Positions 30,471 to 60,759 of a DNA stretch of 64,000 nucleotides are shown here, piece after piece. Numbering within the stretch: the stretch's first letter is position 1; each line of letters opens with the position of its first letter. Source of the DNA: Thermodesulfobacteriota bacterium (lineage in GTDB: Bacteria > Desulfobacterota > Desulfobacteria > Desulfobacterales > JARGFK01). The stretch covers positions 7,865 to 71,864 of the forward strand of contig JBFLWU010000008.1 in NCBI GenBank assembly GCA_040757625.1, read 5' to 3'. The notes beneath the pieces are model-generated. The model saw nothing but the letters and a program-made list of their open reading frames with translations. It did not search any database and had not been told where the DNA came from. The position numbers were made by a program, and so were the translations under genes.

Positions 30471-31859
30471 CTAAAAATTTTTTCCCAGCATGGCGCCTTG
30501 TCGGGGCGTTTCAATGTTCAACCGTTTGATTTTTCGCCAGAGTGTCGAGGCATGGACACCCATCTGCTTTGCGGTAGCGGCTTTATTCCAGTTGTTTTGC
30601 CGTAAAGATTCATAGATAAATCTTCGTTCAATTTCATTCCATGAATTGACCGCACCCTTCAGGCCTTCCGTTTCATTTTTCACCTTCATGCTCTCCGCCT
30701 TATGGATTACTTCCGGCAGGTGTTCAATTCCGATCAGACCATTTTTACACACCACGGTGCTGTATTCGATAATATTTTCCAATTCTCGAACATTGCCGGG
30801 GTAATCATACATCATCAAGACGGTTATGGCTTCCGGGGATATCCCTTGGATTTCCCTCCCGTTTAAGCGGTTGAACTTGCGGATAAAATGATCCGTCAGC
30901 AGCGGAATATCCTCCTTGCGTTCTCTTAATGGCGGCAGACAAAGTCTCACCACGTTGATTCGGTAATACAGGTCGTCGCGAAACACTCCCGTTTTTACCA
31001 GCAAATCCAAATTCTTGTTTGTGGCGGTCACGATGCGGACATTTGCTTTTTCCGTGCGGGTCCCCCCGAGCGGTTCATATGATTTTTCCTGCAAAACGCG
31101 CAGCAGCCTGACCTGCAGCATCGGCGAGATGTCGCCGATTTCATCTAGGAACAGGGTGCCGCCTTCGGCAAGGGCCAGACGTCCGGGTTTGTCTCTTTTG
31201 GCATCGGTAAAAGCGCCGGCTTTATATCCGAACAGCTCCGATTCAAGCAGGGTGTCAGGCAAAGAGACGCAATTAACGGTGATTAACGGACCCTTCTTAC
31301 GATGGCTGAGAGAATGGATGGCTTTGGCAAAAAGTTCTTTTCCGGTTCCGCTCTCTCCTTCCAGTAGAACAGTGGTGTCATTTTCGGATATCAATTCCAG
31401 CATTCCGAACAAATCGAGCATTTCTTTATTTTTACTGATGATATCCAGAAACGAATGCTGACCGGTTAACTCTTTACGCAATGCCTCCACCACGCTTAAA
31501 TCCCGAAAGGTTTCCACCCCCCCGATAACAGCGTCATTTTCGGCTTTTAAGATGGCGGTTGAAATGCTCACCGGCAGACGATTTCCCTCGGAATTTAAAA
31601 TATATATGGATTGATTCACAATGGGCCGGCGGGTTTCAATCGTCTGACGCAGGGCGCATCGCTGCTCACAGATGCTGGCTTTAAAAACCTCCCAGCAGTG
31701 TCGTTTCAGGGCTTCCTTTTTGCTGATTCCGGTTATTTTTTCAGCGGCCCTGTTAAAAGAGGTAATCCGCCAGTCCGCATCCACGGTAAATACCCCGTCG
31801 GCAATACTGTCCAGAATGACCTGGGTGGGCGTTTCAACCAGATGATGCATCTTTTCCAT
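30471..31859 (-). CDS. sigma-54-dependent transcriptional activator (PAS - AAA+ - Fis HTH)
   Basis: Cys-containing PAS (HCWEVFKASICEQRCAL), GESGTGKE Walker A, GAFTDA (GAFTGA variant), ELENII, C-terminal HTH AAKQMGVHASTLWRKIKRL. Confidence 0.9.
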   Translation of the reverse strand: MEKMHHLVETPTQVILDSIADGVFTVDADWRITSFNRAAEKITGISKKEALKRHCWEVFKASICEQRCALRQTIETRRPIVNQSIYILNSEGNRLPVSISTAILKAENDAVIGGVETFRDLSVVEALRKELTGQHSFLDIISKNKEMLDLFGMLELISENDTTVLLEGESGTGKELFAKAIHSLSHRKKGPLITVNCVSLPDTLLESELFGYKAGAFTDAKRDKPGRLALAEGGTLFLDEIGDISPMLQVRLLRVLQEKSYEPLGGTRTEKANVRIVTATNKNLDLLVKTGVFRDDLYYRINVVRLCLPPLRERKEDIPLLTDHFIRKFNRLNGREIQGISPEAITVLMMYDYPGNVRELENIIEYSTVVCKNGLIGIEHLPEVIHKAESMKVKNETEGLKGAVNSWNEIERRFIYESLRQNNWNKAATAKQMGVHASTLWRKIKRLNIETPRQGAMLGKNF

Positions 31860-33535: not shown

Positions 33536-34702
33536 ATGACCGCTCTATCTGAATGGAAAATCGTGTTGGTGGATGATGAAGCGGATATCCGTGAAGTCAT
33601 GGCCATCGCTCTGGCTGATGCCGGATATGATGTCCACACGGCCTCCGATGGAAATGCCGGTATCCGTCTGTGCAAAACGGTTGCCCCCCAGATCGTCATC
33701 ACGGATATCCGCATGCCCGGGATGAACGGCATCCAGGTCCTGGAAACGATCAAAAAACAACATCCGGATATTGAGGTGATCGTTTTTACCGCTTTTGGTG
33801 AAATGGACCTGGCCATCCGGGCGCTTCAGCTGGATGCCTCTGATTTCATCACCAAGCCGGTCAACGACGACGCACTGCACATGGCATTGAAGCGTGCCCG
33901 GGACCGTTACAGCGCCCGCAAACAGCTCAAGGATTATACGGCCCTGCTTGAAAGAGAATATGCCGACCAAGCCCGCATCCTGCATCAGGACAAAATGATC
34001 TCCCTGGGAAGGCTGGCAGCCAGCGTGGTCCACGAGATCAACAACCCGCTTTCCGGGATCCTGAATTATGTCCGTCTGATGATTCGCATTCTCAACCGGG
34101 GACCGCTGAACCAAGAGCATCGGCAAAAATTCGGGCAGTACCTGAAGCTGGTTGAAACCGAAACGGGTCGTTGCTCCCAAATCGTTTCAAGTCTTCTGAC
34201 ATTTTCCCGCAAATCACCCCTGACCTTTGAGAGCGTATCCGTCCCCGATCTGATTGAACGCTGCATCCTTCTAAGCCAGCATAAACTTCAATTGCAGCAC
34301 ATCAGCCTGGAAACGCGGATCGATTCGAACATTCCGCCGGTTGAAGGGGACTTTAACCAGCTGCAGCAGTGTGTCATCAATCTGATTTTTAACGCCATCG
34401 ATGCCATGCCGGAAGGGGGAACCTTGACAATTGCGGGACACCATGAACCTGCCTCTTCACACGTCATCATTACAGTCACGGATACCGGGACCGGTATTTC
34501 CGAGGCGGATCTCCCGCATATTTTTGAACCGTTCTTCACCACTAAAAAGGAAGGCTACGGCGTGGGCCTGGGGCTTTCGACGGTCTACGGCATCATGGAG
34601 CGGCATAAGGGGACCGTTTCCGTGGAAAGCCAGCCGGGTAAAGGCAGCACGTTCAAACTTGAGCTGCCGGAAAAAATCAAGGATGTCGAAAAAGCGGGGT
34701 AG
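33536..34702 (+). CDS. hybrid receiver-histidine kinase (REC - HisKA - HATPase)
   Basis: REC (VLVDDEADIRE, VITDIRMPGMNG, DFITKP). H-box VVHEINNPLS. N/G boxes NLIFNAIDAM, DTGTGIS, GVGLGLS. Confidence 0.88.
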   Translation: MTALSEWKIVLVDDEADIREVMAIALADAGYDVHTASDGNAGIRLCKTVAPQIVITDIRMPGMNGIQVLETIKKQHPDIEVIVFTAFGEMDLAIRALQLDASDFITKPVNDDALHMALKRARDRYSARKQLKDYTALLEREYADQARILHQDKMISLGRLAASVVHEINNPLSGILNYVRLMIRILNRGPLNQEHRQKFGQYLKLVETETGRCSQIVSSLLTFSRKSPLTFESVSVPDLIERCILLSQHKLQLQHISLETRIDSNIPPVEGDFNQLQQCVINLIFNAIDAMPEGGTLTIAGHHEPASSHVIITVTDTGTGISEADLPHIFEPFFTTKKEGYGVGLGLSTVYGIMERHKGTVSVESQPGKGSTFKLELPEKIKDVEKAG

Positions 34703-34721: not shown

Positions 34722-36107
34722 TTAATACGTCAATTTCCCCTGGGCCAATTCCACCTTAAATCGTTTCATCTGGTTCCATACGGTCACACGGGAGACCCCC
34801 AAAAGCTCTGCTGCCAGGGATTGATTGCCGTTGGATTTCTCAAGCGCTTCTATCAGACGACGTTTTTTCATTTCACCCCTGTTCAGGGGGATTTTCTTGT
34901 CCTTTTTCTCCGATTTATTCTCCCCATAAATATTGGGCGGCAGGTGATACGGTTGAATGACCGAATCCTGACAGGTAACAAAGGCGTATTCAAAGGTGCT
35001 TCTTAACTCCCGCACGTTTCCCGGCCAGGAATATGCCATCAATATCCGCATGGCATCATTGCTGATCCCGTTGATTTTTTTATCGGTTTTAAGGCGGATT
35101 CTTCTGAAAAACGCCTCGGCCAAGATGGGGATATCTTCAATCCTCGCCCGCAAGGGGGGAACATGGATCGGTATCACATTGATCCGGTAAAAGAGATCTT
35201 CCCTGAAAAGTCCTTGCTCTACCTGCTCCTTCAGGTCTTTGTTGGTGGCGGATATAATCCGGACATTAACATGAATGGGTTGATTATCCCCCACGCGCTC
35301 GACAACTTTTTCTTCCAGAACCCGCAGCAGTTTCACCTGGGTTAAAACAGGCAAATCGCCGATCTCATCAAGAAAAATGCTCCCTTTCTGAGCAGCCTCA
35401 AATCTTCCGGCACGATTGCGAATGGCACCGGTATAGGCACCTTTGACATGCCCGAAGAGTTCGCTCTCGAGCAGCGCTTCATTTAATGACGCACAATTGA
35501 CTTTCACGTATGGATTGGAGTGGCGCTGACTGTTATCATGAATCGCTTTGGCCACCAGTTCCTTGCCGGTGCCGCTTTCACCAAAAATAATCACGGGCGC
35601 ATCCGATTGAGCCGCGTTGGCTATCAAATCAAACACCTGTTGCATGGGCCCGGAAACCCCCAGGATACCGTGAAAGCCGTTTTCCGATTGAAGTTCGCGG
35701 CGAAACGCCGCAATCTGATTGTCCTTTTCGACGATTTCGGTGATGTCCGTAACCGTTTCCACTGCGCCCATCACTTCGCCGGCGGAATCATACAAAAGAG
35801 AGGCATTCTTTAAAACGTGAATCAACCGGCCGCTTTTTTGAACAAACGTGCATCTGCGCATGTCCATGGAACCGGTCTTAAATAAAACACACCAGTGCTC
35901 CCCCTTATCGCGACGGGCAAATTCGAATATATTACAATTCAATATGGAGCAGGGCTTTCCCAGCATCTCATCTTTTGAATAACCGGTTATTCTTTCAATG
36001 GCCTTATTGACCGAGACAATGCATCCGCCCTTATCAACGATCATGACTCCGTCCTGGATCGTATCCACCACTTTCTTCCAATAGAGGTTCAACTCCTGTT
36101 CAAACAT
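34722..36107 (-). CDS. sigma-54-dependent transcriptional activator (PAS - AAA+ - Fis HTH)
   Basis: Cys-containing PAS, GESGTGKE, GAYTGA, C-terminal HTH AAELLGVSRVTVWNQMKRF. Divergent from the Hdr-like operon. Confidence 0.9.
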   Translation of the reverse strand: MFEQELNLYWKKVVDTIQDGVMIVDKGGCIVSVNKAIERITGYSKDEMLGKPCSILNCNIFEFARRDKGEHWCVLFKTGSMDMRRCTFVQKSGRLIHVLKNASLLYDSAGEVMGAVETVTDITEIVEKDNQIAAFRRELQSENGFHGILGVSGPMQQVFDLIANAAQSDAPVIIFGESGTGKELVAKAIHDNSQRHSNPYVKVNCASLNEALLESELFGHVKGAYTGAIRNRAGRFEAAQKGSIFLDEIGDLPVLTQVKLLRVLEEKVVERVGDNQPIHVNVRIISATNKDLKEQVEQGLFREDLFYRINVIPIHVPPLRARIEDIPILAEAFFRRIRLKTDKKINGISNDAMRILMAYSWPGNVRELRSTFEYAFVTCQDSVIQPYHLPPNIYGENKSEKKDKKIPLNRGEMKKRRLIEALEKSNGNQSLAAELLGVSRVTVWNQMKRFKVELAQGKLTY

Positions 36108-43496: not shown

Positions 43497-46400
43497 ATGA
43501 AAAAAAAGGTGGGCACGGCTTTGGTGGTGGGTGCAGGAATCAGCGGGATCCGGGCGGCTCTGGATTTGGCTGAAAATGGATACGGGGTGAAACTGATCGA
43601 CCGATCCCCCCATCTGGGCGGAATTCTGACCCAGCTCGACTACCAGTTTCCCACGAACCGCTGCGGGATGTGCAAAATGCTGCCGCTGGTGGACCGGGAT
43701 GCGTCCTCGCAATACTGCCTGCGCAAGGGGCTCTTCCATGAAAACATTGAAATTTTAACGTCCACCGAACTTGTCTCGGTGGCGGGCGAATCGGGGAATT
43801 ACCGCGTAAAACTCCGTCAGAAGCCCAGCTGGGTGGACCCGGAACTGTGCGTCGGCTGCGGCGCCTGCGTACCGGTCTGTCCGGTGGAAGTTCCGGATGC
43901 GTTTAATGCCGCCTTGGCACGGCGCAAGGCCATCTACTTGCCGGTACCCCACGCCATCCCCAATCCTTTCGCCATCGACGTGACGGCCTGTACGCGGTGC
44001 GGCGCCTGTGAAGCGGTCTGCCCCACCGGCGCCATTCGACTGTCCGACCAGGAAAGAAAAATGTTTCGCATTCTCGTGGTGGACGATGAACTGATTGTGC
44101 GCGATTCGCTCAAGGCCTGGCTGGATGATGAAGAAGGGTTTATGGTGGATACGGCCGAATCCGGACCGGACGCCTTGGACAAGTTAACCAAGAACTCGTA
44201 TCAATTAATGCTGCTGGATATCAAGATGCCGGAAATGGACGGCGTGGAGGTTCTCCGAAAAACCAAAGATATCCTGCCCGATATCCAAGTGGTGATGATG
44301 ACCGCCTACGCTACCGTCGAGACGTCCGTCGAAGCCATGAAGATCGGTGCGCTGGATTACCTGATTAAACCCTTCGACCCGGAAACACTCGTACCTAAAA
44401 TTCTGCAGCTTTATGAAGATCTTGAGACTTCCCGGGCCAGGGAGGTGGAAGTGGGGGCGCTGGTCCTCTGCGGCGGCAGCAGCTATTATAATCCGGCGGA
44501 TGGAAAAAACACCTTCGGCTATAAGAACCTTCCCGGGGTTATCACCAGCCTGGAGTTTGAACGCCTCATCAGCGGCACCGGCCCATGTCAGGGCCGCCTG
44601 ACGCGTCCCGAAGACGGCAAACCCATCCGTAAAATCGCCTGGATTCAGTGTGTCGGATCCCGGGACCTGCAAAGCAGCGCCGATTTTTGTTCAAATGTCT
44701 GCTGCATGATCGCCGTCAAAGAGGCCCTGCTGGCCAGGGAAAAATTCGGCGAAGCAGTGGAAACCACCGTCTTTTATATGGACATGCGCACCTTCGGCAA
44801 ATCGTATCAGCGCTATCGCAACGCGGCTGAAAAGACTCACGGCGTTCACTTCGAACGGGGCCGGGTGCACTCGGTCATCAGGGACGGCACCACCGATCAA
44901 AACGGGGAAGATCTGTCCGTCCGCTACGCGGACGCCGGCGGTGCCATCCGGGATGAACGTTTTGATATGGTGGTCCTGGCCGTCGGCCAGCGTCCGGTGG
45001 CGGGGACGATTGAATTGTCGAAACAGCTGGATATTCCCCTGAATCCCTGGGGATATTGTCAGACCGAACCATTTTCCATGACAAAAACCGGAAAAGACGG
45101 AATCGTCGTCGGCGGCGCTTATTCCGGCCTCAAAGACATCAGCGAATCCGTGATTCAGGCATCGGCCGCGGCCTTATCCGCATCCCGGGCGATTCACAGT
45201 GTCGGCGGCAGTCTGGCATTGGAAACCGAGCCCGCCCCTGAACAGGCCGGTCTGGCGAGGGAATTACCCCGGACACTGGTAGCTATCTGTACCTGCGGCG
45301 ATGCGCTTTCGGAATTTGCCAGATCTCTGGAATTGTCGGCACGACTTCAAAGCGATCCGGCCGTAAGCGCAGTGGAATTTGTTGATCGAATCTGTACCGC
45401 CGCCGGGTGGGAAACCTTGCTGCAGGTTGTGGAAAAGCATCGGCCCAACCGGATTCTGATCGGCGCCTGCCTGCCCTGCGTCTATGCACCGAAAATCAAG
45501 GCGCTCGCCGGCCGCGCCGGCCTGAACCCGTCGCTGACGGACGTGGTGGATATCCGCTCCCCGGCATTTGAAACCCTCGATCCTGAAAAACCGGCCGACA
45601 CGAAGCATATTATCGCCATGATGGCAAGCGCCCTCTTGACCGGTTTGGCCAGGCTGAAACGGGTGGACCCCTCACCCGTAGCCACCATCAAGGTCCAGCA
45701 GCAGGCCCTGATTGTCGGCGGAGGCATTGCCGGAATGACGGCGGCGCTGGCAATTGCTGATCATGGATTTCATGTCGACCTGATCGAAAAGGAAGACCGG
45801 CCGGGCGGAAATCTGACCTGGCTCCGGGGCACCCTGGAGGGTCAGGCTGTCAAACCCTTATTGGATGGGACCCTTGCGAAGGTTGAAAAACACCCGCTGA
45901 TCGAAGTTCGCACCCAAACCCATGTGGTAGGCGCTTATGGTCAAGTGGGTAATTTTTTCACAACCATCGAAAACCAGGACGGTCGGACCGATACTCTCCG
46001 GCACGGCGTCATTATTCTGGCCACCGGCGGCGCCGAAGCGATCCCCAGCGCCTATCATTACGGGGAGAGCGACGTGATTATCACCCAGAAGGAACTTGAA
46101 CAAAAACTGGACCGAAACGAAATCGATCCTTTGAAGCTGGAATCGGTGGTCATGATCCAGTGTGTCGAATCGCGCGAAGAACCGCGCAACTATTGCAGCC
46201 GAATCTGCTGTTCATCAGCCTTGAAACACGCCCTGGCGTTAAAGCAGATAAACCCTGAAATCGAAATATTCATCTATTATCGCGACATGATGTCCTATGG
46301 ATTCATGGAGACCTATTTTACCCGCGCCCGACAGGCGGGGGTAATCTTCATCCAGTATGATCCCATGCAAAAACCGGAGGTCATCCCGGCAACCGAGGCT

Positions 46401-46970
46401 GCCGGCGGCAGCCCTGTCAGCGTCAAAGGCTATGATCCCATCCTGGGGCGTCCCGTGGAAATCGAGGCCGATCTGGTGGTCCTTTCCATGGGGGTGGTGC
46501 CCGGCCTGCCGGCGGACTTGGCGGCGTCCCTGGGAACTTGTCTGGATCAAGACGGTTTTTTTCAGGAGGCTGAGGCCAAATGGCGACCGGTCGACGCCAT
46601 CAAGGAAGGCATATTCGCCTGCGGGCTGGCGCACTCGCCCCGTTCCATCGCCGAGGCGGTTACCACCGCTGAAGCGGCGGCCCAGCGCACCCTTCGGATT
46701 CTGTCGCAAAAATTTCTACCGGCCGGAAAAATTGTGGCCGGGGTCCATCATGCCCTGTGCAGCCTGTGCCAACGCTGTATCGATGCCTGCCCCTACGGCG
46801 CTCGCACCCTGGATGAGGACGTGGAAAAAGTCTTGGTAAACCCCGTGATGTGCCAGGGCTGCGGTTCCTGCGCCGCTGTTTGTCCCAACAGCGCATCGTT
46901 TTTGGAGGGATTTCATGAAGAACAGATGTTTGAGACGATCGACGCCGCCTTGGAGGGAACTTTCGGATAG
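43497..46970 (+). CDS. tandem HdrA-like flavoprotein with embedded response-regulator receiver domain (1157 aa)
   Basis: FAD fold VVGAGISGIRAALD, 2x CxxCxxCxxxCP, REC at aa about 189-306 (RILVVDDE, LMLLDIKMPEMDG, VVMMTAY, DYLIKPF), then TSLEFERL / IQCVGSRD / CSNVCCM. A second HdrA module follows (ICTCG, GACLPC, IVGGGIAGMTAALA, QCVESRE, CSRICCSSALK, terminal 2x[4Fe-4S]). Confidence 0.87.
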   Translation: MKKKVGTALVVGAGISGIRAALDLAENGYGVKLIDRSPHLGGILTQLDYQFPTNRCGMCKMLPLVDRDASSQYCLRKGLFHENIEILTSTELVSVAGESGNYRVKLRQKPSWVDPELCVGCGACVPVCPVEVPDAFNAALARRKAIYLPVPHAIPNPFAIDVTACTRCGACEAVCPTGAIRLSDQERKMFRILVVDDELIVRDSLKAWLDDEEGFMVDTAESGPDALDKLTKNSYQLMLLDIKMPEMDGVEVLRKTKDILPDIQVVMMTAYATVETSVEAMKIGALDYLIKPFDPETLVPKILQLYEDLETSRAREVEVGALVLCGGSSYYNPADGKNTFGYKNLPGVITSLEFERLISGTGPCQGRLTRPEDGKPIRKIAWIQCVGSRDLQSSADFCSNVCCMIAVKEALLAREKFGEAVETTVFYMDMRTFGKSYQRYRNAAEKTHGVHFERGRVHSVIRDGTTDQNGEDLSVRYADAGGAIRDERFDMVVLAVGQRPVAGTIELSKQLDIPLNPWGYCQTEPFSMTKTGKDGIVVGGAYSGLKDISESVIQASAAALSASRAIHSVGGSLALETEPAPEQAGLARELPRTLVAICTCGDALSEFARSLELSARLQSDPAVSAVEFVDRICTAAGWETLLQVVEKHRPNRILIGACLPCVYAPKIKALAGRAGLNPSLTDVVDIRSPAFETLDPEKPADTKHIIAMMASALLTGLARLKRVDPSPVATIKVQQQALIVGGGIAGMTAALAIADHGFHVDLIEKEDRPGGNLTWLRGTLEGQAVKPLLDGTLAKVEKHPLIEVRTQTHVVGAYGQVGNFFTTIENQDGRTDTLRHGVIILATGGAEAIPSAYHYGESDVIITQKELEQKLDRNEIDPLKLESVVMIQCVESREEPRNYCSRICCSSALKHALALKQINPEIEIFIYYRDMMSYGFMETYFTRARQAGVIFIQYDPMQKPEVIPATEAAGGSPVSVKGYDPILGRPVEIEADLVVLSMGVVPGLPADLAASLGTCLDQDGFFQEAEAKWRPVDAIKEGIFACGLAHSPRSIAEAVTTAEAAAQRTLRILSQKFLPAGKIVAGVHHALCSLCQRCIDACPYGARTLDEDVEKVLVNPVMCQGCGSCAAVCPNSASFLEGFHEEQMFETIDAALEGTFG

Positions 46971-48693: not shown

Positions 48694-50982
48694 ATGAAAG
48701 GTGCTTTCACGTCGTTTAATAATTTGCGCCACAGCCTGGGATTTAAGCTGATTTTAACCGTCGGCGTCACCCTGCTGCTGTCCATCGGGATCTGGGCTTT
48801 CTTTAACATCAAGTACCAGCAGGCGAAGCTCATATATCATATCGTTGCCGATGCCGACCGGTTGAGCCACACCATCATCCTTGGCACGCACGATGCCATG
48901 CTGCACGACTCAAGAGGCGATATCGCCCGGATCATCGAAAACATCGGTCGGCAAAAAGAACTTCGCGCCTTACGAATCTACAATAAAGACGGGGTGGTAA
49001 AGTATTCGAGCCGGCCGGCCGAGATTGACCAAGCCGTTGATATCCAGGCAAGAGTCTGTTCGGTATGTCATCTCTCGAGTCCGCCGCTGTCTCAGGTTGA
49101 TTTGGCAAAACGGGCCTGGTTTACCACCACGCCGAAAGGGTCGCGCCAGATGGAGATCGTTACGCCGATCCGGAACGAACCCCGGTGCACCTCCGGTCCT
49201 TGCCATATCCATTCGGGTGAAAAAAAATTTTTAGGCGCATTGAACTTAATTTTTTCCCTTGAGCAGACTGAAAAAGAGATCCTCCATCTTGAAAAAGGAA
49301 TCATTGCGCTGGCGGGTTTCGTTTTTCTGGTAACCTCCACGATTATTTTTGTTTTCGTGATGAGATTCGTCAATCTCCCCATCAAGAAGCTGATCATCGG
49401 CACCCACCGGATTGCCAAAGGAAATTATCTCGGCCAGGTGGACATTTCCGGGCCAGACGAAATGGGGCAATTGGCAGCCGCCATAAACAAAATGGGTCAA
49501 GAAATCTGGGAAAATCAGGCGGAGCTCAACCGTCAACGAAACGAATACCAATCGCTCTTTGACCATGTCCCCTGCCTGATTACCGTGCAGGACAAAGACT
49601 ACCGTCTGATCGGGGTTAACCGCGAATTTTCTGAAAAGTTCAGGCCGACCCTGGGCGAATACTGCTACCAGGTCTACAAGGGACGCAGCAGTAAGTGCAG
49701 TGAGTGTCCGGTCGAACAGACCTTTAAAGACGGAATGTCACATTATGCGGAAGAAACCGGTTCAGATAAGGATGGAACGGTGACCCACTGGATCGTAAAA
49801 ACAGCGCCCATTCGCAATATCAACGGAGAGATTGTCGCCGCCATGGAAATGAGCGTGGACATCACACACAGCCGGATGCTTGAAGAAAAACTGGAAGAGT
49901 CGGAAAGGAAATATCATGAAATTTTCAATAATATGCCCAATCCAGCCTTTGTTCTGGATGGGCATAAGCTGCAAATTTTAGACTGCAACCAGCGTGTAAA
50001 AAATATTTACGGCTTCAGCAGGGAAGAGTTGATTCAAACCTCATTTCTCGATCTCTTTAAGGATAAAGAAATGGGAGCGAATACCTTAAAAATCAGAAAC
50101 TCCAGCGTACTGCATCAGGCGACGCACCTGAGAAAGACCGGTGAGACCATTTATGTGGATATCTGGATCTCGCCGCTGATATACGAAGGACAATTGGTAT
50201 TTCTGGTGACCACCAGCGATATCACCCAGCGGCTTGAAACCGAACAGCAGCTCATCCAGGCCGGTAAAATGGCCACCCTTGGCGAAATGGCCACCGGTGT
50301 GGCCCATGAGCTGAACCAGCCCCTTTCGGTTATCAAAACCGCCAGCAGCTTTTGCATCAAAAAGATTCAAAAAAACGAAGAAATAGCCGATAAAACCCTC
50401 TTCACCATGCTGAATAAAATAGACGGCAATGTCGACCGGGCTACCAAAATTATCACGCATATGCGACAATTCGCCAGAAAGACTGATATGAACCTGGTGA
50501 AAGTGCAGATCAACGACATCCTGCAGCGGGCCTTCGAGATTTTCAGCCAGCAGTTGAAGCTGAGAGGAATTGAAGTCGCCTGGCATTTGGCGCCGGATCT
50601 ACCGCTCGTCACAGGTGACCCCGACCGGCTGGAGCAGGTATTTATCAACCTGATCTTAAACGCCAGAGAGGCCATGGAGGAAAAATCAGCCTCCATGGCC
50701 GCAGAAAGCATTGAGAAAAGAATAACGCTTAAAACAGCCGCAAATGGGGAAAAGGTTACCGCTGAAGTCTGTGACACGGGAATCGGAATCCCCAAGGCGG
50801 TTGCGGACAAAATTTTCGAACCGTTCTTCACCACCAAAGAAGTGGGGAAAGGGACCGGGCTGGGGCTCTCTATTAGTTATGGTATCGTTAAAGACTGCGG
50901 CGGAACCATTCGGGTCAAATCAGAAAGCGGCCAGGGAGCGTGTTTTATCATAACGTTTCCTCTGCCAAACAAGGCGCAATGA
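48694..50982 (+). CDS. sensor histidine kinase: TM - periplasmic heme-c-type domain - TM - HAMP - PAS(Cys4) - PAS - HisKA - HATPase
   Basis: Two TM helices flank about 165 aa carrying CSVCH (CxxCH) and CTSGPCH (CX4CH). HAMP follows, then PAS with VPCLITVQD...CYQVY...CSECP. H-box VAHELNQPLS, then NLILNAREAM, DTGIGIP, GTGLGLS. Confidence 0.88.
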   Translation: MKGAFTSFNNLRHSLGFKLILTVGVTLLLSIGIWAFFNIKYQQAKLIYHIVADADRLSHTIILGTHDAMLHDSRGDIARIIENIGRQKELRALRIYNKDGVVKYSSRPAEIDQAVDIQARVCSVCHLSSPPLSQVDLAKRAWFTTTPKGSRQMEIVTPIRNEPRCTSGPCHIHSGEKKFLGALNLIFSLEQTEKEILHLEKGIIALAGFVFLVTSTIIFVFVMRFVNLPIKKLIIGTHRIAKGNYLGQVDISGPDEMGQLAAAINKMGQEIWENQAELNRQRNEYQSLFDHVPCLITVQDKDYRLIGVNREFSEKFRPTLGEYCYQVYKGRSSKCSECPVEQTFKDGMSHYAEETGSDKDGTVTHWIVKTAPIRNINGEIVAAMEMSVDITHSRMLEEKLEESERKYHEIFNNMPNPAFVLDGHKLQILDCNQRVKNIYGFSREELIQTSFLDLFKDKEMGANTLKIRNSSVLHQATHLRKTGETIYVDIWISPLIYEGQLVFLVTTSDITQRLETEQQLIQAGKMATLGEMATGVAHELNQPLSVIKTASSFCIKKIQKNEEIADKTLFTMLNKIDGNVDRATKIITHMRQFARKTDMNLVKVQINDILQRAFEIFSQQLKLRGIEVAWHLAPDLPLVTGDPDRLEQVFINLILNAREAMEEKSASMAAESIEKRITLKTAANGEKVTAEVCDTGIGIPKAVADKIFEPFFTTKEVGKGTGLGLSISYGIVKDCGGTIRVKSESGQGACFIITFPLPNKAQ

Positions 50983-53932: not shown

Positions 53933-55813
53933 ATGCAAACAGACGGTGAACCGATGTCAACCACGTTTCAAGCAATTCGACAAAGCCTCGTTTCCAAATT
54001 TGTCATCTCGATGGGGCTCACCCTGATTGTCAGTATTTCCGCGTGGACCTACCTGAATTATGTCTACATGGAAAAAATCGCCGGCCAGGTCGGTCTTCTT
54101 CGTGAAGTGCTTCTGTTCGAAAAATGGCTGCTGGCGCTGGCCATTCTTATTTTCGTTTTAACCGCCGCCGTTATCTTATTCTTTGTATACCGGTTTGTTT
54201 ACCGCCCCATCAAACTTCTGATCAGAGGCACCCGGCTCATTGCCAAGGGGGATTATTCGAACCGGATTCAAATCAATCAAAAGGATGAAATGGGTCAGCT
54301 GGCGGCGGCCATCAATCAGATGGGCAAAGAAATCCGTGAAAAGCAGACGGAACTCAACAAACAGCGGGCGGAATATCAAACCCTGTTTGAACTGGTTCCC
54401 TGCATTATCACCGTACAGGACCGAAGCTACAAGCTGGTTCGCTACAACCGGGAATTTGCCGAAAAATTTGACCCCAAACCCGGCGATTACTGCTATTACG
54501 CCTACAAGGGCCGCAGCGAAAAATGCCCGGTCTGCCCGGTGGAAAAAACTTTTGAAGACGGCAAGTCCCATTACAGCGAGGAAACCGGTTTTAATAAAGA
54601 CGGCAGCGCGGCGCACTGGATCGTCAATACATCGCCCATCAAAAACGATAAAGGTGAAATTGTTGCCGTCATTGAAATGAACCTTGACATCACCCATCGC
54701 AAGCTGCTGGAGGAAAAACTGGAAAAATCCGAAAAAAAATACTACGCGATTTTCAACAACATCCCCAATCCGGTCTTTGTCCTGGATGTTGACACCCTGG
54801 AGATACTGGACTGCAACGAAAGCGTCAAGTTCGTTTACGGTTATCCAAAATCCGAAATCATCAGAAAATCCTTTCTGGAGCTCTTTTCGGAAGAAGAAAA
54901 AGAGACGTATGCCGAAAAGATCAAGACATCTGCCTTCATCAACCGGGTCAAGCATCTGGATAACAAGGGCCGGACGTTGTATGTGCATATCCGCGTGTCG
55001 CCTTCGGAATATCCGGGCCAAAAGGTGCTCCTGGTTACCACCAGCGATATTACCAAGATTTTTGAAGCGGAGCGGCAACTGATTCATGCCAGTAAAATGG
55101 CAACCCTGGGAGAAATGTCAACCGGTGTGGCCCATGAACTCAATCAGCCCCTGTCAGTCATTAAAACCGCCAGCAATTATTTTATGCGAAAAATAGGCAA
55201 AAATGAAAAAATTGATGACGAAACCCTTTTTACCATGGCAAAGGAAATCGACGGCTACGTTGATCGCGCGACAAACATTATCAATCATATGCGACAGTTC
55301 GGCCGCAAGTCGGATTTGACCATGGAGCCGGTTCAGGTTAATGACCTGCTGAAAAACGCCTTTCAGATTTTCAGCCAGCAGTTGAAACTGAGGGAAATCG
55401 AAGTGGTCTGGACGATTGAAAAGGACCTGCCGGAAATAATGGCGGACCCGGGCCGCCTGGAACAGGTGTTTATCAACTTGTTGATCAATGCCCGGGATGC
55501 CATTGAGGATCGATGGCAAAATCAAAAAGCCGGCCAAGATGACAAACGCATCACCCTCAAAACAGTGTCTGAGGGCAAGACCGTAATCATAGAGGTTCGT
55601 GATACCGGCACGGGAATTCCCGAAGCCATTTCCGACAAAATATTTGAGCCTTTTTTCACTACCAAAAAGGTAGGCCAGGGTACCGGATTGGGCCTTTCCA
55701 TCAGCTACGGAATTATCAAGGATTGCGGCGGCACCATTCAGGCCCTGTCCGGCAAGGAAGGCGGGGCTCGCTTTATCATCAAGTTCCCGATACCCGACCC
55801 GTTAACCCGTTGA
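53933..55813 (+). CDS. sensor histidine kinase, paralogue of 48694-50982 without the periplasmic heme domain
   Basis: Two TM helices with only a short loop between them, HAMP, PAS(Cys4: VPCIITVQD...CYYAY...CPVCP), PAS, VAHELNQPLS, HATPase boxes. Roughly 60% identical to the first kinase over the cytoplasmic part, by eye. Confidence 0.88.
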   Translation: MQTDGEPMSTTFQAIRQSLVSKFVISMGLTLIVSISAWTYLNYVYMEKIAGQVGLLREVLLFEKWLLALAILIFVLTAAVILFFVYRFVYRPIKLLIRGTRLIAKGDYSNRIQINQKDEMGQLAAAINQMGKEIREKQTELNKQRAEYQTLFELVPCIITVQDRSYKLVRYNREFAEKFDPKPGDYCYYAYKGRSEKCPVCPVEKTFEDGKSHYSEETGFNKDGSAAHWIVNTSPIKNDKGEIVAVIEMNLDITHRKLLEEKLEKSEKKYYAIFNNIPNPVFVLDVDTLEILDCNESVKFVYGYPKSEIIRKSFLELFSEEEKETYAEKIKTSAFINRVKHLDNKGRTLYVHIRVSPSEYPGQKVLLVTTSDITKIFEAERQLIHASKMATLGEMSTGVAHELNQPLSVIKTASNYFMRKIGKNEKIDDETLFTMAKEIDGYVDRATNIINHMRQFGRKSDLTMEPVQVNDLLKNAFQIFSQQLKLREIEVVWTIEKDLPEIMADPGRLEQVFINLLINARDAIEDRWQNQKAGQDDKRITLKTVSEGKTVIIEVRDTGTGIPEAISDKIFEPFFTTKKVGQGTGLGLSISYGIIKDCGGTIQALSGKEGGARFIIKFPIPDPLTR

Positions 55814-56076: not shown

Positions 56077-56538
56077 ATGAAGCTATCGACCCGGAGCCGT
56101 TACGGCGCCAGAATTTTGGTGGACTTGGCAAACCACCAGAACCAGGGGCCGGTGCAAATCGGCGAAATTTCCAAGCGCCAAGGTATTTCCGTAAAGTACC
56201 TGGAGCAGCTCATTCGTCCTTTGAAGGAAGCCAAGCTGGTCACCAGTGTCAGGGGGCCCAAAGGCGGCCATATCATGGCCAGGAAACCGAAAGACGTCAC
56301 CCTGGGGCAAATCGTACGCCTGTTCGAAGGTCAGGCCGAACTGGTGGAATGTATCAGCTGCCCTGAAAAATGTCCCATGTCCGATGATTGCCGGGTTCGC
56401 CTAGCCTGGATGGATGCGACCCAGGCCCTTTATAACAGGCTGGACGCAACCACTATTGCGGATCTGTTAAAAGCCGATACCCATACAAACGGCGGCAATG
56501 AGGCATGCCGCCCGGGCCGCAAACCCAAAACGTCATAA
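56077..56538 (+). CDS. Rrf2-family transcriptional regulator with Cys cluster
   Basis: MKLSTRSRYGARILVDLA, wHTH ISKRQGISVKYLEQL, Cys motif CISCPEKCPMSDDC. Confidence 0.88.
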   Translation: MKLSTRSRYGARILVDLANHQNQGPVQIGEISKRQGISVKYLEQLIRPLKEAKLVTSVRGPKGGHIMARKPKDVTLGQIVRLFEGQAELVECISCPEKCPMSDDCRVRLAWMDATQALYNRLDATTIADLLKADTHTNGGNEACRPGRKPKTS

Positions 56539-56709
56539 CCGCATTTTTCAAATTGAAATGAGCGGCACTACCATTAAAAATAAAAGTTTTCCCGGCTGGG
56601 AGGGCGACCATCCACCATCACAGCTATCGGAACATTTGAAAAAAGTTTCGGGGCAGCGCCCCTAAACCCTTTTGCCTAAGTGGCTCAAAAAAACATACAG
56701 GAGGTATTC

Positions 56710-57951
56710 ATGAAAAAAGTAGTAATTTTAGGTTCAGGCGCCGGCGGCACCATTGTTGCCAGCAAACTGCGTAAGGAATTGAGCGAGGCTGAATGGCAGA
56801 TCACCATCATCGACAACGATGAAATCCATCACTACCAGCCGGGATGGCTGTTCATCCCCTTCGGCATTTACACTGCCCGGGATTGCCAGAAGCCTAAAAG
56901 AGATTTCATCCCCAAGGGGGTTAATTTCGTGTTCGATGAAATCGTCGGCGTCAACCCGGACAAGCGCCAGGTGTCGGGGAAAAAGGCAACCTATAACTAC
57001 GACTGGCTCGTCATAGCCACGGGCTGCCGGATTGCTCCGGAGGAAGTCGACGGGATGATGGATGACTGGCACGGCAATATTCACGATTTTTATACCCTTG
57101 AAGGCGCACTCGCGCTTCGTAAGAAAATGAAATATTTCAATTCCGGGCGTGTCGTCCTGAACATTGCGGAACTCCCCTATAAATGCCCCGTCGCCCCCCT
57201 TGAATTCATTTTTATGGCCGACTGGTTCTTCAAGCAAAACGGTTGTCGCGACAAAATTGAAATCGAGCTGGCGACGCCGCTTGCCGGGGCTTTTTCCAAA
57301 CCGATTGCATCTAAAATTCTGGGCGAAACAGCCGTTCTGAAAAACATTATCGTCACTCCCAACTTTGATCTTGCCCAGGTCAATGCCGAGGAAAAAACGA
57401 TTGAATCCCACAAAGGGAAAAAAATTCCTTATGACCTGCTGATATCCATACCGCCCAATTTCGGCGCTAAATATATTGAAGATTCCGGTATGGGCGATCC
57501 CATGTGCTATGTGGATACCGATCACAACACTCTTAAGGCCAAAAACTATGATCACATTTATGTTGTCGGCGATGCCACCAACGTTCCGGCTTCAAAAGCC
57601 GGCGCCGTCGCCCACTATGAGTCCGAAACCGTAGTGGAGAACCTTGTGCGCGAAATCGAGGGCCAGGAGCCCAAACCGACTTTTGACGGACATGCCACCT
57701 GCTTTATCTGTTCGGGGTACGAAAAAGCGATTCTGATCGATTTCAACTACAAGGTCGAACCGCTTCCCGGCAAATTCCCCTTCCCCGGCCTTGGTCCCTT
57801 CTCACTGCTGGGAGACAGCAATTTCAACTACTGGGGGAAAATGATGTTCAAGTGGGTCTACTGGAACATGATGCTCAAGGGCATTGACCTGCCCCTGGAA
57901 GAGCAGATGATGATGGCCGGCAAGATGCGGCCCAGTCTGGCAACACAATAA
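56710..57951 (+). CDS. FAD-dependent pyridine nucleotide-disulfide oxidoreductase, sulfide:quinone oxidoreductase-like
   Basis: MKKVVILGSGAGGT, YQPGW, KCPVAPLEF, GDATNVPASKAG, ATCFICSG. Start moved to MKKVV. Confidence 0.78.
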   Translation: MKKVVILGSGAGGTIVASKLRKELSEAEWQITIIDNDEIHHYQPGWLFIPFGIYTARDCQKPKRDFIPKGVNFVFDEIVGVNPDKRQVSGKKATYNYDWLVIATGCRIAPEEVDGMMDDWHGNIHDFYTLEGALALRKKMKYFNSGRVVLNIAELPYKCPVAPLEFIFMADWFFKQNGCRDKIEIELATPLAGAFSKPIASKILGETAVLKNIIVTPNFDLAQVNAEEKTIESHKGKKIPYDLLISIPPNFGAKYIEDSGMGDPMCYVDTDHNTLKAKNYDHIYVVGDATNVPASKAGAVAHYESETVVENLVREIEGQEPKPTFDGHATCFICSGYEKAILIDFNYKVEPLPGKFPFPGLGPFSLLGDSNFNYWGKMMFKWVYWNMMLKGIDLPLEEQMMMAGKMRPSLATQ

Positions 57952-57963
57952 GGAGGCGCCGCC

Positions 57964-58662
57964 ATGACAAACGAAGAATTGATTTTAGAGCGACTGGATC
58001 GAATTGAAAACCAGATCGCTCCGCTGGCCCAAACGGCACGGGGAGTGGCCGAACTTAAGGATGACTTGATGCCGTTGGGCCATCAGGCCGTCAAAATGTT
58101 GATTAGCGAGCTGCAGGATGTCGAATCCAGTTTCCAGATGGAAGACCTGCTGGAACTGTTCAAACGGATGCTTCGCAGCGTCAAGGATATCACCTATGCG
58201 CTGAATCAGCTGCAAAGTATTATCGATTTTATCACCACCCTGGAACCGCTGCTGAAATCATCTGTACCCAAACTGATTCATTACCTGGACGATCTCGAAC
58301 AAAAAGGCGTTCTGCGCGTCATCCAGGCCATGCTGGATGTGCGCGCCAAAGTCGCGGATGCCTACTCGCCCGAAGATATCGACCAGATCGGGGATGTCTT
58401 TGTTGCCCTGCTCGGTTTGGCCAAGAAGCTTTCCGATCCTCAAGCAATGGCCTTCCTGGAAAGGGCGGCTGAAATTCCCTCCCGGCTGGACCTGGTCAAT
58501 TGCAAGGATGTCGGCCCCTTTGGTCTGATTTCGGCGAGCGCCACCACGGAAGTCAAACAGGGGCTGGGGGTATTGATGGAGCTGACCCGCGCACTGGGCA
58601 GGCTGAAAATGCCCAGCGAAGCCGACACGCCCCGACATGAGGCCTCCGGCGTCGCCGCATAA
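57964..58662 (+). CDS. DUF1641-like helical protein
   Basis: 232 aa, helical. Its position immediately after an SQR-like flavoprotein is typical for DUF1641. The assignment is from pattern and context only. Confidence 0.45.
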   Translation: MTNEELILERLDRIENQIAPLAQTARGVAELKDDLMPLGHQAVKMLISELQDVESSFQMEDLLELFKRMLRSVKDITYALNQLQSIIDFITTLEPLLKSSVPKLIHYLDDLEQKGVLRVIQAMLDVRAKVADAYSPEDIDQIGDVFVALLGLAKKLSDPQAMAFLERAAEIPSRLDLVNCKDVGPFGLISASATTEVKQGLGVLMELTRALGRLKMPSEADTPRHEASGVAA

Positions 58663-58806
58663 CGAGCATCCGTTAGGACTTAAACAGCTCCGGAAATAAA
58701 ATATTCCCGGCGGTTTTTCAAGGCGGCTTCGTCTTTGAGAATCCGATCTGAATGCCGCCGGGGACAAACTTTTAACCCGGTTTTTAAAGATGCTTTCGGA
58801 CAGTTT

Positions 58807-60759
58807 ATGACGGCAGAAAAAATTTTACTGGTAGATGACGAAGAGGGCATCCGCAAGGTTTTAGGAATTTCGCTGGCTGATATCGGATATGATGTCCGCA
58901 CGGCCGAAAACGGCGAAAACGCCTTGCGCATTTTTAAAGAGTTTCAGCCCCCGGTGGTCTTAACCGACATCAAAATGCCCGGAATGGACGGAATCGAACT
59001 GCTGCGCAAAATCAAGACGGAGAACCCGGAAGCGGAAGTCATCATGATAACCGGCCATGGCGACATGAACCTGGCCATCAAGAGCTTGAAATATGAAGCA
59101 ACCGATTTCATCACCAAACCCATCAACCAGGATGTGCTGGAAATCGCACTGAAGCGGGCGCACGAAAAGATATCCATGCGCCGCCAGATCAAGGATTATA
59201 CCGAAAACCTTGAACAGCTGGTTCGTGAAAAGTCAGCTAAAATCGTCGAGCTGGAAAGACAAACGGCTGTCGGGCAAACCGTGGAAGGCCTGACATCCGC
59301 CATCCGCAACATTGCCGGCGACCTTGAAGACGGCATCACCTATTCCCACGAGATGCCGTGCTTTGTTTCGATTCATGACCGTGATCTCAAAGTTGTGGCA
59401 ACCAACCAGCTTTATACCCAGCGCCTGGGAAATTTTGTGGGCGATGGCTGCTGGAAAATCTATTGCGGGGAAACTGCCCGCCCGGACACATGCCCGACAG
59501 CCGAAACCATCCGGTCCGGAACCGGTCTGCGCCGCAAAGAAACTATCCGTTATTTAAACGGTACGGAAGCGCCGGTTATCGTCCATACCGCACCCATTAA
59601 AAACAGAGACGGAAAACTGGATCTCGTTGTGGAAATATCCGTGGATATTACCGAGGTCAGGCGTCTGCAGGAGGAGTTGCGCACCACTCAGCAACGCTAT
59701 CAGGAGCTTTTTGACGAAGTCCCCTGCTATATTTCAGTACAGGACAAAGCTCTAAAAATCACGGCGGCAAACCGGCGTTTCAAGGAGGACTTCGGTCATG
59801 ATATCGGCAGGTTCTGTTTCGAAATTTATCAGCACCAGGATCAGGCCTGCCTTAATTGTCCGGTCCAGAAAACTTTTGAGGATGGAAACTCCCACCAGGC
59901 TGAAATGATGGTAACGTCCCAAACCGGTGAAAAATACAATGTGCTTGTCTGGACCGCCCCTATCCGAAACGCCAGGGGCGAAATCACCCAGGTGATGGAG
60001 ATGTCCACCAACATCACCCAGATTCGGCAGCTCCAGGACCATCTGTCGTCATTGGGCCTACTGATCGGTTCCATCTCCCACGGCATAAAAGGCCTGCTGA
60101 CCGGCCTTGACGGCGGCATGTATCTGCTGAACACCGGTTTTGCCAAGGCGAATCAAGTCCAGGTTGCCGAGGGCTGGGAAATCGTCAAGCTGATGATCGG
60201 GCGCATCCGCTCCATGGTTCTGGATATCCTCTATTACGCCAAAGAAAGAGAATTGAAATGGGAACTGATCGATGTCTTAAGCTTTGTAAAAGATATCGCC
60301 TTTACCTTCGGCCCCAAGATTCAAAGCCAGCGCATCGATTTCGCCTGCGATTTTGACGAGACTGTCGGCAGGTTCGAGGTGGACCCGGGCATTGTCCGCT
60401 CGGCCCTGATCAACCTTCTGGAAAACGCCCTGGAAGCCTGCCTGGCCGACCCGTCCAAGCCCATACACCGGATTGCATTCGGCGTCAGACAGGATTCGAC
60501 CCATATCATCTTCGATGTGATCGACAATGGAATCGGCATGGATGAAGCGACTAGAAAAAACATATTTACACTGTTCTTTTCTTCCAAGGGCGACCGGGGA
60601 ACCGGGCTGGGGCTGTTTATTTCCAACAAAATCATCCGGCAGCACGGCGGCACCATTGAAGTGGATTCAAAACCGGGAGAAGGAACCCGCATGGGCATCA
60701 AAATTCCCAAAATGATCCCGGATTCCCTGAAAAAGCCTGCGGATCAGGCGGCGGTCTGA
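58807..60759 (+). CDS. receiver - PAS(Cys) - PAS(Cys4) - histidine kinase
   Basis: Start MTAEKILLVDDEEGIRK. The REC and kinase core are paralogous to 50979-52148 (SISHGIKGLLTG, NLLENALEAC, DNGIGMD, GTGLGLF). Two Cys-bearing PAS domains are inserted between them. Confidence 0.88.
   Translation: MTAEKILLVDDEEGIRKVLGISLADIGYDVRTAENGENALRIFKEFQPPVVLTDIKMPGMDGIELLRKIKTENPEAEVIMITGHGDMNLAIKSLKYEATDFITKPINQDVLEIALKRAHEKISMRRQIKDYTENLEQLVREKSAKIVELERQTAVGQTVEGLTSAIRNIAGDLEDGITYSHEMPCFVSIHDRDLKVVATNQLYTQRLGNFVGDGCWKIYCGETARPDTCPTAETIRSGTGLRRKETIRYLNGTEAPVIVHTAPIKNRDGKLDLVVEISVDITEVRRLQEELRTTQQRYQELFDEVPCYISVQDKALKITAANRRFKEDFGHDIGRFCFEIYQHQDQACLNCPVQKTFEDGNSHQAEMMVTSQTGEKYNVLVWTAPIRNARGEITQVMEMSTNITQIRQLQDHLSSLGLLIGSISHGIKGLLTGLDGGMYLLNTGFAKANQVQVAEGWEIVKLMIGRIRSMVLDILYYAKERELKWELIDVLSFVKDIAFTFGPKIQSQRIDFACDFDETVGRFEVDPGIVRSALINLLENALEACLADPSKPIHRIAFGVRQDSTHIIFDVIDNGIGMDEATRKNIFTLFFSSKGDRGTGLGLFISNKIIRQHGGTIEVDSKPGEGTRMGIKIPKMIPDSLKKPADQAAV

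Follow-up and report, generated by a model that had tools for sequence, protein, structure and literature searches.

The window, that is, the whole stretch of 64,000 nucleotides from Thermodesulfobacteriota contig JBFLWU010000008.1 that was analyzed, comes from a bacterium of the sulfate-reducer type and encodes three kinases with cysteine-containing PAS modules, denoted K1, K2 and K3, and two sigma-54 activators whose PAS domains also carry several cysteines. The features are as follows:

48694..50982, + strand: K1, membrane histidine kinase with a periplasmic sensor, HAMP, four-Cys PAS, second PAS, HisKA and HATPase (Pfam scan, ORF list)
49519..49893, + strand: four-Cys PAS module of K1, residues 276-400 (translation; AlphaFold2 model; conservation in 123/123)
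53933..55813, + strand: K2, paralogous kinase with HAMP, four-Cys PAS, second PAS, HisKA and HATPase (ORF list, Pfam scan)
54347..54721, + strand: four-Cys PAS module of K2, residues 139-263 (translation, conservation)
58807..60759, + strand: K3, with REC, PAS-a, PAS-b and the kinase core (ORF list, Pfam scan)
59305..59682, + strand: PAS-a (first PAS) of K3, variant module (translation; orthologue Cys counts)
59671..60042, + strand: PAS-b (second PAS) of K3, canonical four-Cys module (translation; four Cys in 120/120 orthologues)
30471..31859, - strand: OrpR-like sigma-54 activator, N-terminal PAS with C55, E57, C64 and C68, C-x8-C-x3-C (Pfam; OrpR spacing; orp neighbours)
34722..36107, - strand: second sigma-54 activator, PAS with C53-x4-C58-x14-C73-x12-C86 (absent from the list in a preliminary description of this DNA)

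Translation of the three kinases reveals a common motif, C-x29-C-x10-C-x2-C-P, in the PAS modules of K1 (C294, C324, C335 and C338; codon starts 49573, 49663, 49696 and 49705) and K2 (C157, C187, C198 and C201; codon starts 54401, 54491, 54524 and 54533), and in the second PAS of K3 (codon starts 59725, 59815, 59848 and 59857). Each kinase module contains exactly four cysteines, all within the motif, and in the four-Cys modules, Cys2 is flanked by the pattern G-[DE]-Y-C-Y-x-x-Y-K-G. The recurring four-Cys PAS motif claimed in the preliminary description is therefore real in these three modules, with the same spacing in each; of the coordinates given for it, two in K3 need a small correction: in the second PAS the motif starts at 59806 (not 59809) and in the first PAS it ends at 59496 (not 59520). 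In K2, the loop between the membrane helices is short. The ATG of K3 at 58807 yields a 650-aa product that matches the database entry; a TTG upstream, at 58735, also lies in the open frame.

Loss of the cysteines from orthologues of these three modules, which had been named as grounds for abandoning the claim, was not observed: all four are retained in 123/123 close K1/K2-type modules and in 120/120 second-PAS modules of K3 orthologues. Of 118 modules that score at least 100 bits, taken from a set of representatives after clustering at 50% identity, 94 contain all four cysteines, and the median pairwise identity among 108 four-Cys modules is 39%. When 315 related modules, drawn from 149 representative proteins, are aligned, five columns contain 87% of all cysteines, compared with the 4% expected for a uniform spread, so that the cysteine pattern of the modules exceeds chance. 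In the module numbering, Cys2, Cys3 and Cys4 correspond to C49, C60 and C63; in an alignment of 50 sequences with 29-66% identity, only four columns are invariant, those of C49 and C63 included, and C60 is conserved in at least 90% of the sequences. The last cysteine is directly followed by a proline in 122 of the 123 close modules, and a Cys-Pro ending is also found in ferredoxin-type motifs. As judged from these alignments, the core of the family is the triad C-x10-C-x2-C. Cys1 is far less fixed than the triad, with about 24 state changes on a tree constructed with the cysteine columns masked. Of the 147 triad-only modules, 50 have a cysteine on strand I-beta (column 108), whereas no such cysteine occurs in the 108 modules that contain Cys1. 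Strands A-beta and I-beta lie side by side in PAS folds, and these alternative positions of the fourth cysteine would be explained by a four-ligand site.

The first PAS of K3 had been counted as a fourth copy of the motif. It is indeed a variant, C-x29-C-x4-C-x8-C, with the third cysteine displaced (codon starts 59359, 59449, 59464 and 59491), but only two of its cysteines are conserved: among 120 orthologues, 109 have just Cys1 and Cys4, and the four-Cys pattern found in the window recurs in 5 close relatives only. A cluster ligated by four cysteines leaves unexplained why this domain retains Cys1 and Cys4 yet loses Cys2 and Cys3.

The AlphaFold2 model of the K1 module (pLDDT 92.2) adopts the PAS fold with A-B-(helices)-G-H-I topology, and the Pfam matches to the kinase modules are PAS_4 and PAS_9. 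In the model, Cys1 is located directly before strand A-beta, Cys2 at the start of E-alpha, Cys3 in the loop between E-alpha and F-alpha, and Cys4 at the N-terminus of F-alpha. In a profile alignment, Cys2 is matched to the column of the flavin-adduct cysteine in phototropin LOV domains, which places it in the cofactor pocket, and according to the model and the alignment, the triad as a whole sits in the usual PAS cofactor pocket. If A-beta follows the simple LOV register, in which D25 is paired with the LOV Asp, the first pocket-facing position is the residue after Cys1, whose side chain may then point elsewhere. The closest solved structures, by both sequence and fold, are the flavin-binding LOV and NifL PAS domains (TM about 0.7-0.78, 13-26% identity). 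When the module profile was searched against solved structures, LOV and KCNH PAS domains alone were retrieved, with no Cys-metal PAS, and Foldseek against the PDB returned generic PAS matches, with no Fe-S PAS among the best 50. Two candidate assignments were considered and rejected. Membership in the LOV family is indicated by the cysteine column alone, whereas GxNCRFLQ, with its flavin-binding Arg, Gln and Asn, is absent, and the modules contain four cysteines compared with one in LOV. For c-type heme attachment in the cytoplasmic module, the sequence is CxxCP, not CxxCH; CxxCH is limited to the separate periplasmic domain of K1.

NreB is likewise a histidine kinase, and its cytoplasmic PAS domain binds an Fe-S cluster, which makes it comparable to the kinase modules here with their putative cluster; the likeness extends to cysteines between B-beta and G-beta. 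The NreB of Staphylococcus carnosus holds [4Fe-4S] with C-x2-C-x11-C-x2-C, and that of Bacillus licheniformis holds [2Fe-2S] with C63/C66/C78 (PMC13478379). The B. licheniformis type adjoins sqr genes, as K3 adjoins an SQR-like gene. The preliminary description was right, however, that the spacing differs from that in NreB: the kinase modules, with C-x29-C-x10-C-x2-C, lack the NreB motif and differ in the order as well as the spacing of the cysteines, and the kinase core is HisKA here compared with HisKA_3 in NreB. NreB chains were absent both from the solved structures matched by sequence at E <= 0.01 and from the best 50 fold matches.

A closer relative is OrpR (DVU2106), a sigma-54 activator of Desulfovibrio vulgaris Hildenborough, in which sensing requires all three PAS cysteines; the purified protein contains a [4Fe-4S]2+ cluster that is converted to [3Fe-4S]1+ on mild oxidation, and a carboxylate, Asp or Glu two residues past the first Cys, has been proposed as the fourth ligand, giving the pattern C52, D/E54, C61, C65 (Fievet et al. 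2021, PMC8359166). The activator at 30471-31859 has a PAS / sigma-54 AAA+ / HTH architecture (Pfam) and orp-type neighbours, namely, Nitro_FeMo-Co and NUBPL/ParA-type genes. In 409 related activator-type PAS modules, C55 is present in 403, C64 in 315 and C68 in 402, and the patterns CECC and CDCC combined account for 250. On these features, the activator is an OrpR orthologue, and its PAS domain contains three cysteines (C55, C64 and C68) rather than the four that had been attributed to it. The second activator, at 34722-36107, retains its own four cysteines in five orthologues with 67-94% identity.

Comparison of the kinase-module profile with the OrpR-type PAS profile using hhalign yields a probability of 98.3% (E = 1.4e-14), a score to be read with the caveat that PAS profiles align with one another at high probability in any case; kinase C49/C60/C63 fall on OrpR-type C50/C59/C63, and the alignment has a single gap before the middle cysteine and another after it. 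The kinase modules and the OrpR PAS thus share the PAS fold and a cysteine triad between E-alpha and F-alpha that aligns column for column in the profile-profile comparison; the hosts are anaerobic Desulfobacterota, and the window itself encodes an orthologue of OrpR that matches the published pattern exactly. They differ in spacing (C-x10-C-x2-C-P in the kinases versus C-x8-C-x3-C in OrpR), in the invariant cysteine that the kinase modules add ahead of A-beta, and in output, histidine kinase versus AAA+ activator. The acidic residue at +2 of OrpR is not conserved in the kinase modules, where Q, Y, E or K stands at this place; the four-Cys modules have E in 36, Q in 17 and R in 14 cases. The Asp at column 19, which is frequent in triad-only modules, was considered as evidence of a Cys-to-Asp ligand swap and rejected as such given that Asp-Gly is also frequent in OrpR-type modules; at this position, Asp-Gly is generic in PAS S-boxes. 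The proposal of a distinct sensor class therefore requires qualification: the modules are not wholly separate but belong to an OrpR-related family, to which a fourth cysteine is added.

Our favored reading, to which we assign a probability of about 0.58, is that the module is a PAS domain related to that of OrpR, senses redox state by means of an Fe-S cluster, has a fourth cysteine and has been redeployed in histidine kinases that adjoin Hdr-like genes. Given the kinship with the Fe-S redox sensor of OrpR, the kinase modules probably read the redox state of the cell. In the cytoplasmic PAS module, the usual cofactor pocket would most likely be occupied by an iron-sulfur cluster, probably of the [4Fe-4S] type, with Cys2, Cys3 and Cys4 as ligands and Cys1 as the fourth. 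If the oxidation state or the integrity of the cluster changed, the PAS domain and its N-terminal cap helix would be altered, and this effect, relayed by the second PAS and by the DHp helices, would set the level of kinase autophosphorylation; the phosphoryl group would then be transferred to adjacent receivers, those of the REC-kinase hybrids and the one within the HdrA-like flavoprotein (43497-46970). A more elaborate scheme, which we deem distinctly unlikely, is that an all-Cys-ligated cluster reports the cytoplasmic redox state reversibly (2+/1+) and, together with a putative periplasmic heme-c sensor of K1, feeds a phosphorelay to the HdrA-like receiver, such that a bifurcating-type enzyme would be switched post-translationally; unlike this reversible mode, sensing by OrpR has been proposed to involve cluster breakdown.

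Several other cofactor assignments have to be weighed against an Fe-S cluster. The cysteines could instead coordinate just one metal ion, either Zn2+ or Fe2+ in a rubredoxin-like site, which would stabilize the helical half of the domain or sense metal or oxidant. A set of four cysteines, with a CxxC where a helix begins, is likewise typical of Zn(Cys)4 sites, and a His that is conserved at the beginning of G-beta (column 75; found in 84 of 108 four-Cys modules and 77 of 147 triad modules) could provide a Cys3His site; zinc-binding PAS domains exist, for example, in WalK, but the metal site of WalK consists of His, Asp and Glu, not Cys. Considering that the ligands here come from four separate elements around a large pocket rather than from two knuckles, and that the characterized relative OrpR carries an Fe-S cluster, we regard a single metal as unlikely; some lineages, moreover, lack the cysteines yet keep the fold, which argues against a purely structural metal. 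The improbability is greatest for an organic cofactor (flavin, heme or another chromophore) attached to or contacted by the cysteines, as in LOV, PYP and c-type heme PAS domains. No flavin or heme PAS family is known to feature four invariant cysteines, the LOV signature is missing, CxxCP stands in place of CxxCH, and the LOV matches are only 13-26% identical, so that we consider this assignment extremely improbable even though the nearest solved structures are flavin-binding and Cys2 occupies the adduct-cysteine column.

A cofactor-free thiol switch, in which the CxxC at the N-terminus of F-alpha or a Cys1-Cys4 bridge would form a disulfide, persulfide or polysulfide that alters the kinase, with oxidants or sulfane sulfur as the trigger, fits the first PAS of K3 better than a cluster does, as 109/120 orthologues have Cys1 and Cys4 alone there. 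The CxxC (C60, C63) right before helix H64-71 is a thioredoxin-like arrangement, and K3 adjoins an SQR-like flavoprotein and an Rrf2 regulator. Nevertheless, two thiols suffice for such a switch, which does not need four invariant cysteines, the triad is homologous to the cluster ligands of OrpR, and the hosts here are strict anaerobes, whereas disulfide control of the ArcB type is found in quinone-exposed kinases of facultative aerobes; hence, as an account of the four-Cys modules, we rate it very unlikely.

In a search for related loci that was based on a four-sequence alignment, the pair of kinase and REC-kinase recurs in 68 of the best 80 loci, and HdrA-REC homologues are located upstream in 23 of them, in 19 of the 23 along with HdrC and HdrB. 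The hosts of the best 80 genome loci are Desulfobacterales throughout; one module-bearing protein comes from Dehalococcoidia, and the named hosts are anaerobes. The suggestion that a Cys-PAS input feeds all surrounding signalling proteins is too wide because the REC-kinases at 33536 and 50940 have no PAS domain in the Pfam scan. Of 301 genomes sampled from the phylum, 66 carry a high-scoring module, and 585 clusters (formed at 50% identity) reach E <= 1e-30. No Pfam or NCBIfam subfamily model captures the four-Cys module: with the isolated module as the query, the generic 'sensory_box' model alone exceeds the NCBIfam cut-off, and the kinase equivalogs fall far below it. The searchable literature yielded no description of a four-Cys kinase module.

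To our knowledge, the Fe-S PAS sensors recognized so far amount to very few proteins, NreB and OrpR, and the kinase-borne four-Cys relative of OrpR described here is common. Because the module is found repeatedly beside Hdr-like genes of energy conservation, confirmation of the cofactor would open a direct experimental route to the way in which strict anaerobes link their redox state to the control of energy metabolism.

Translation of the three sensor histidine kinase genes, K1, K2 and K3, bears out the four-cysteine PAS motif reported in the preliminary description, with two boundaries of its nucleotide ranges shifted slightly, from 59809 to 59806 and from 59520 to 59496.

48694-50982: K1, motif cysteines C294, C324, C335 and C338
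53933-55813: K2, motif cysteines C157, C187, C198 and C201
K3, second PAS: Cys codons at 59725, 59815, 59848 and 59857
59305-59682: K3, first PAS (variant copy), Cys codons at 59359, 59449, 59464 and 59491

The pattern C-x29-C-x10-C-x2-C followed by Pro is common to K1, K2 and the second PAS of K3. Four cysteines also occur in the first K3 PAS, where the third is displaced, yielding C-x4-C-x8-C. Each kinase module has exactly four cysteines, none outside the motif (hereafter Cys1 to Cys4 in module order, with Cys2-Cys3-Cys4 denoted the triad). According to Pfam, the motif of K1 and K2 (HAMP, PAS, PAS, HisKA, HATPase) sits in the first cytoplasmic PAS domain, and K3 (REC, PAS, PAS, kinase core) carries cysteines in both PAS domains; the 650-aa database version of K3 uses the ATG at 58807 as its start.

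Modelled with AlphaFold2 from a 50-sequence alignment, the K1 module confidently adopts the canonical PAS topology (pLDDT 92.2, pTM 0.82), with Cys1 (column 19 of the module) immediately N-terminal to strand A-beta, Cys2 (column 49) at the start of helix E-alpha, Cys3 (column 60) within the E/F loop, and Cys4 (column 63) at the N-terminal end of helix F-alpha. In a profile alignment with phototropin LOV domains, Cys2 falls on the flavin-adduct cysteine column and Cys4 adjoins the F-alpha arginine column; given this alignment and the established knowledge of LOV structures, the predicted cysteine site is located in the classical PAS cofactor pocket. The closest solved structures are LOV and NifL PAS domains (13-26% identity), and neither sequence nor fold searches found a cysteine-metal PAS near the module among solved structures.

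The cysteines are strongly conserved. A search with the K2 module matched 1429 proteins; the top 120, sharing 53% or more identity across the module, comprise 123 modules, every one of which retains the four cysteines. The same holds for the second PAS of K3 orthologues (120/120), as the preliminary description had demanded of orthologues in general. Searching 1.84 billion representative sequences (50% identity clusters) with a profile retrieved 585 proteins at E <= 1e-30, and the best 150 of these contain 108 four-Cys modules (median pairwise identity 39%) and 147 triad-only modules. Five columns hold 87% of all cysteines in 315 modules (4% expected if uniform), and C49 and C63 belong to just four invariant columns of the 50-sequence alignment (29-66% identity). 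From these counts and the column conservation it follows that, at the sequence level, the conserved core of the family is the triad C-x10-C-x2-C, the fourth cysteine being variable. A cysteine in strand I-beta (column 108) is present in 50 of the 147 triad-only modules and in none of the 108 modules carrying Cys1; one protein with this form comes from a Dehalococcoidia genome. A-beta and I-beta are neighbouring strands of the PAS sheet. When the Cys columns were masked for tree building, about 4 state changes were counted for the I-beta cysteine, about 24 for Cys1 and about 10 for the full triad, all far below the shuffled expectation.

Two sigma-54 activators, the second absent from the preliminary description, are encoded in the window.

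30471-31859, minus strand: OrpR-like activator with three cysteines (C55, C64, C68) plus E57
34722-36107, minus strand: second activator, divergent from the Hdr-like cluster

In OrpR, a sigma-54 activator of Desulfovibrio vulgaris, sensing by the PAS domain requires C52, C61 and C65, and the domain binds a [4Fe-4S]2+ cluster that becomes [3Fe-4S]1+ upon mild oxidation, the conserved Asp/Glu54 being the proposed fourth ligand (PMC8359166). The OrpR-like activator (PAS, sigma-54, HTH) has C55, E57, C64 and C68 in the same spacing as these residues, and its neighbours are orp-type, namely, Nitro_FeMo-Co proteins and NUBPL/ParA-type ATPases with ferredoxin inserts. Of 409 related modules, 403 share C55, 315 share C64 and 402 share C68. 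We read it as an OrpR orthologue. Its PAS domain has three cysteines rather than the four initially assigned. Many of its relatives (P0274-P0393), from Desulfobulbales-type genomes, are 700-800 aa long with 3-4 tandem OrpR-type PAS copies, most with the triad, the first often with Arg for the middle Cys. The PAS domain of the second activator has its own pattern, C53-x4-C58-x14-C73-x12-C86, which is kept in five orthologues (67-94% identity), where C29 is not conserved, and is absent from three remoter relatives (30-37% identity; tblastn).

Aligned profile to profile, the kinase module (50 sequences) and the OrpR-type module (20 sequences) matched with a probability of 98.3% (E = 1.4e-14), and the kinase triad fell on all three OrpR cysteines, with one gap on either side of the middle one. 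The acidic residue conserved at +2 in OrpR is not a conserved feature of the kinase modules, which possess Cys1 instead. The spacing also differs, as suspected, from the NreB motif of S. carnosus, C-x2-C-x11-C-x2-C; in the NreB-type protein of B. licheniformis, a [2Fe-2S] cluster is bound by C63, C66 and C78 (PMC13478379). The NreB cysteines lie in a similar broad region, B-beta to G-beta, but their order and spacing are unlike those of the module, and searches of solved structures yielded no NreB match by sequence or fold. Literature searches turned up OrpR and NreB and no further Fe-S PAS sensor, and neither Pfam nor NCBIfam contains a subfamily-specific model for the module.

The best-supported reading is that the four-Cys PAS pocket holds an Fe-S cluster, probably [4Fe-4S], that would be ligated by the triad and Cys1 and would read the redox state, with the kinase and its presumed phosphotransfer partners as the output. 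The rivals are a mononuclear Zn or Fe site, and a thiol or persulfide switch operating via the helix-N-terminal CxxC or the Cys1-Cys4 pair; an organic cofactor is the least likely. The two-thiol alternative draws on the first PAS of K3, where, among 120 orthologues (P0394-P0513), the pre-A-beta Cys1 is kept in 120 and the F-alpha N-terminal Cys4 in 118. Because 109 of the 120 have Cys1 and Cys4 alone, the supposed fourth copy is conserved for this pair and, against the demand of the preliminary description, not for its other two cysteines; the pattern in the window (Cys at columns 49 and 54) recurs in five close relatives, and three further orthologues have the column-49 Cys without that at column 54. 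A four-Cys cluster site leaves this co-retention unexplained, and the first PAS of K3 may work through a pair of thiols or through a site bridged across a dimer.

Genes adjoining the kinases include the following.

43497-46970, plus strand: HdrA-like flavoprotein (1157 aa), directly 5' of the genes for the HdrC-like and HdrB-like proteins and K1
56077-58662, plus strand: Rrf2 regulator, SQR-like flavoprotein and DUF1641 protein, flanked by K2 and K3

Between its ferredoxin and flavin modules, the HdrA-like flavoprotein carries an inserted, complete response-regulator receiver (residues 192-301, Pfam E = 1.6e-29), and a REC-kinase hybrid gene lies 3' of K1. The best 80 loci (L001-L080) all come from Desulfobacterales-type genomes; 68 pair a K1-type kinase with a REC-kinase hybrid, mostly downstream, and 23 have an upstream HdrA-REC homologue, 19 of these with HdrC and HdrB as well. 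The flanks vary (about 10-12 loci have a PD40-repeat protein together with a NarI-like membrane protein, and 9 have an Rrf2 regulator), and the Rrf2/SQR-like/DUF1641 trio adjoins a four-Cys-module kinase in two related loci (L048, L078). The trio between K2 and K3 recalls the NreB-sqr link of Bacillus licheniformis. The proposal that all signalling proteins here share one input is too broad, because two neighbouring REC-kinases (33536 and 50940) have no PAS domain according to Pfam. The periplasmic part of K1, with CSVCH and CTSGPCH at 49057-49071 and 49186-49206, matches Pfam Mcp40H-20_sensor (E = 1e-7), which suggests a c-type heme sensor besides the cytoplasmic Cys-PAS; K2 has no periplasmic domain of this type.

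Within this genome, 13 of 47 profile-matching PAS domains have at least two motif cysteines, and the full four-Cys form is confined to the window. Other contigs (C39, C62, C6, C81, C94, C54) encode at least seven PAS domains with the triad or a C-x4-C-x8-C-P variant resembling the first PAS of K3, all without the pre-A-beta Cys. Across the phylum, the module is found at E <= 1e-25 in 66/301 sampled genomes and 44/201 genera. Being widespread, linked to Hdr-like energy genes and equipped with a still putative cofactor, the module is a putative sensor of moderate interest.
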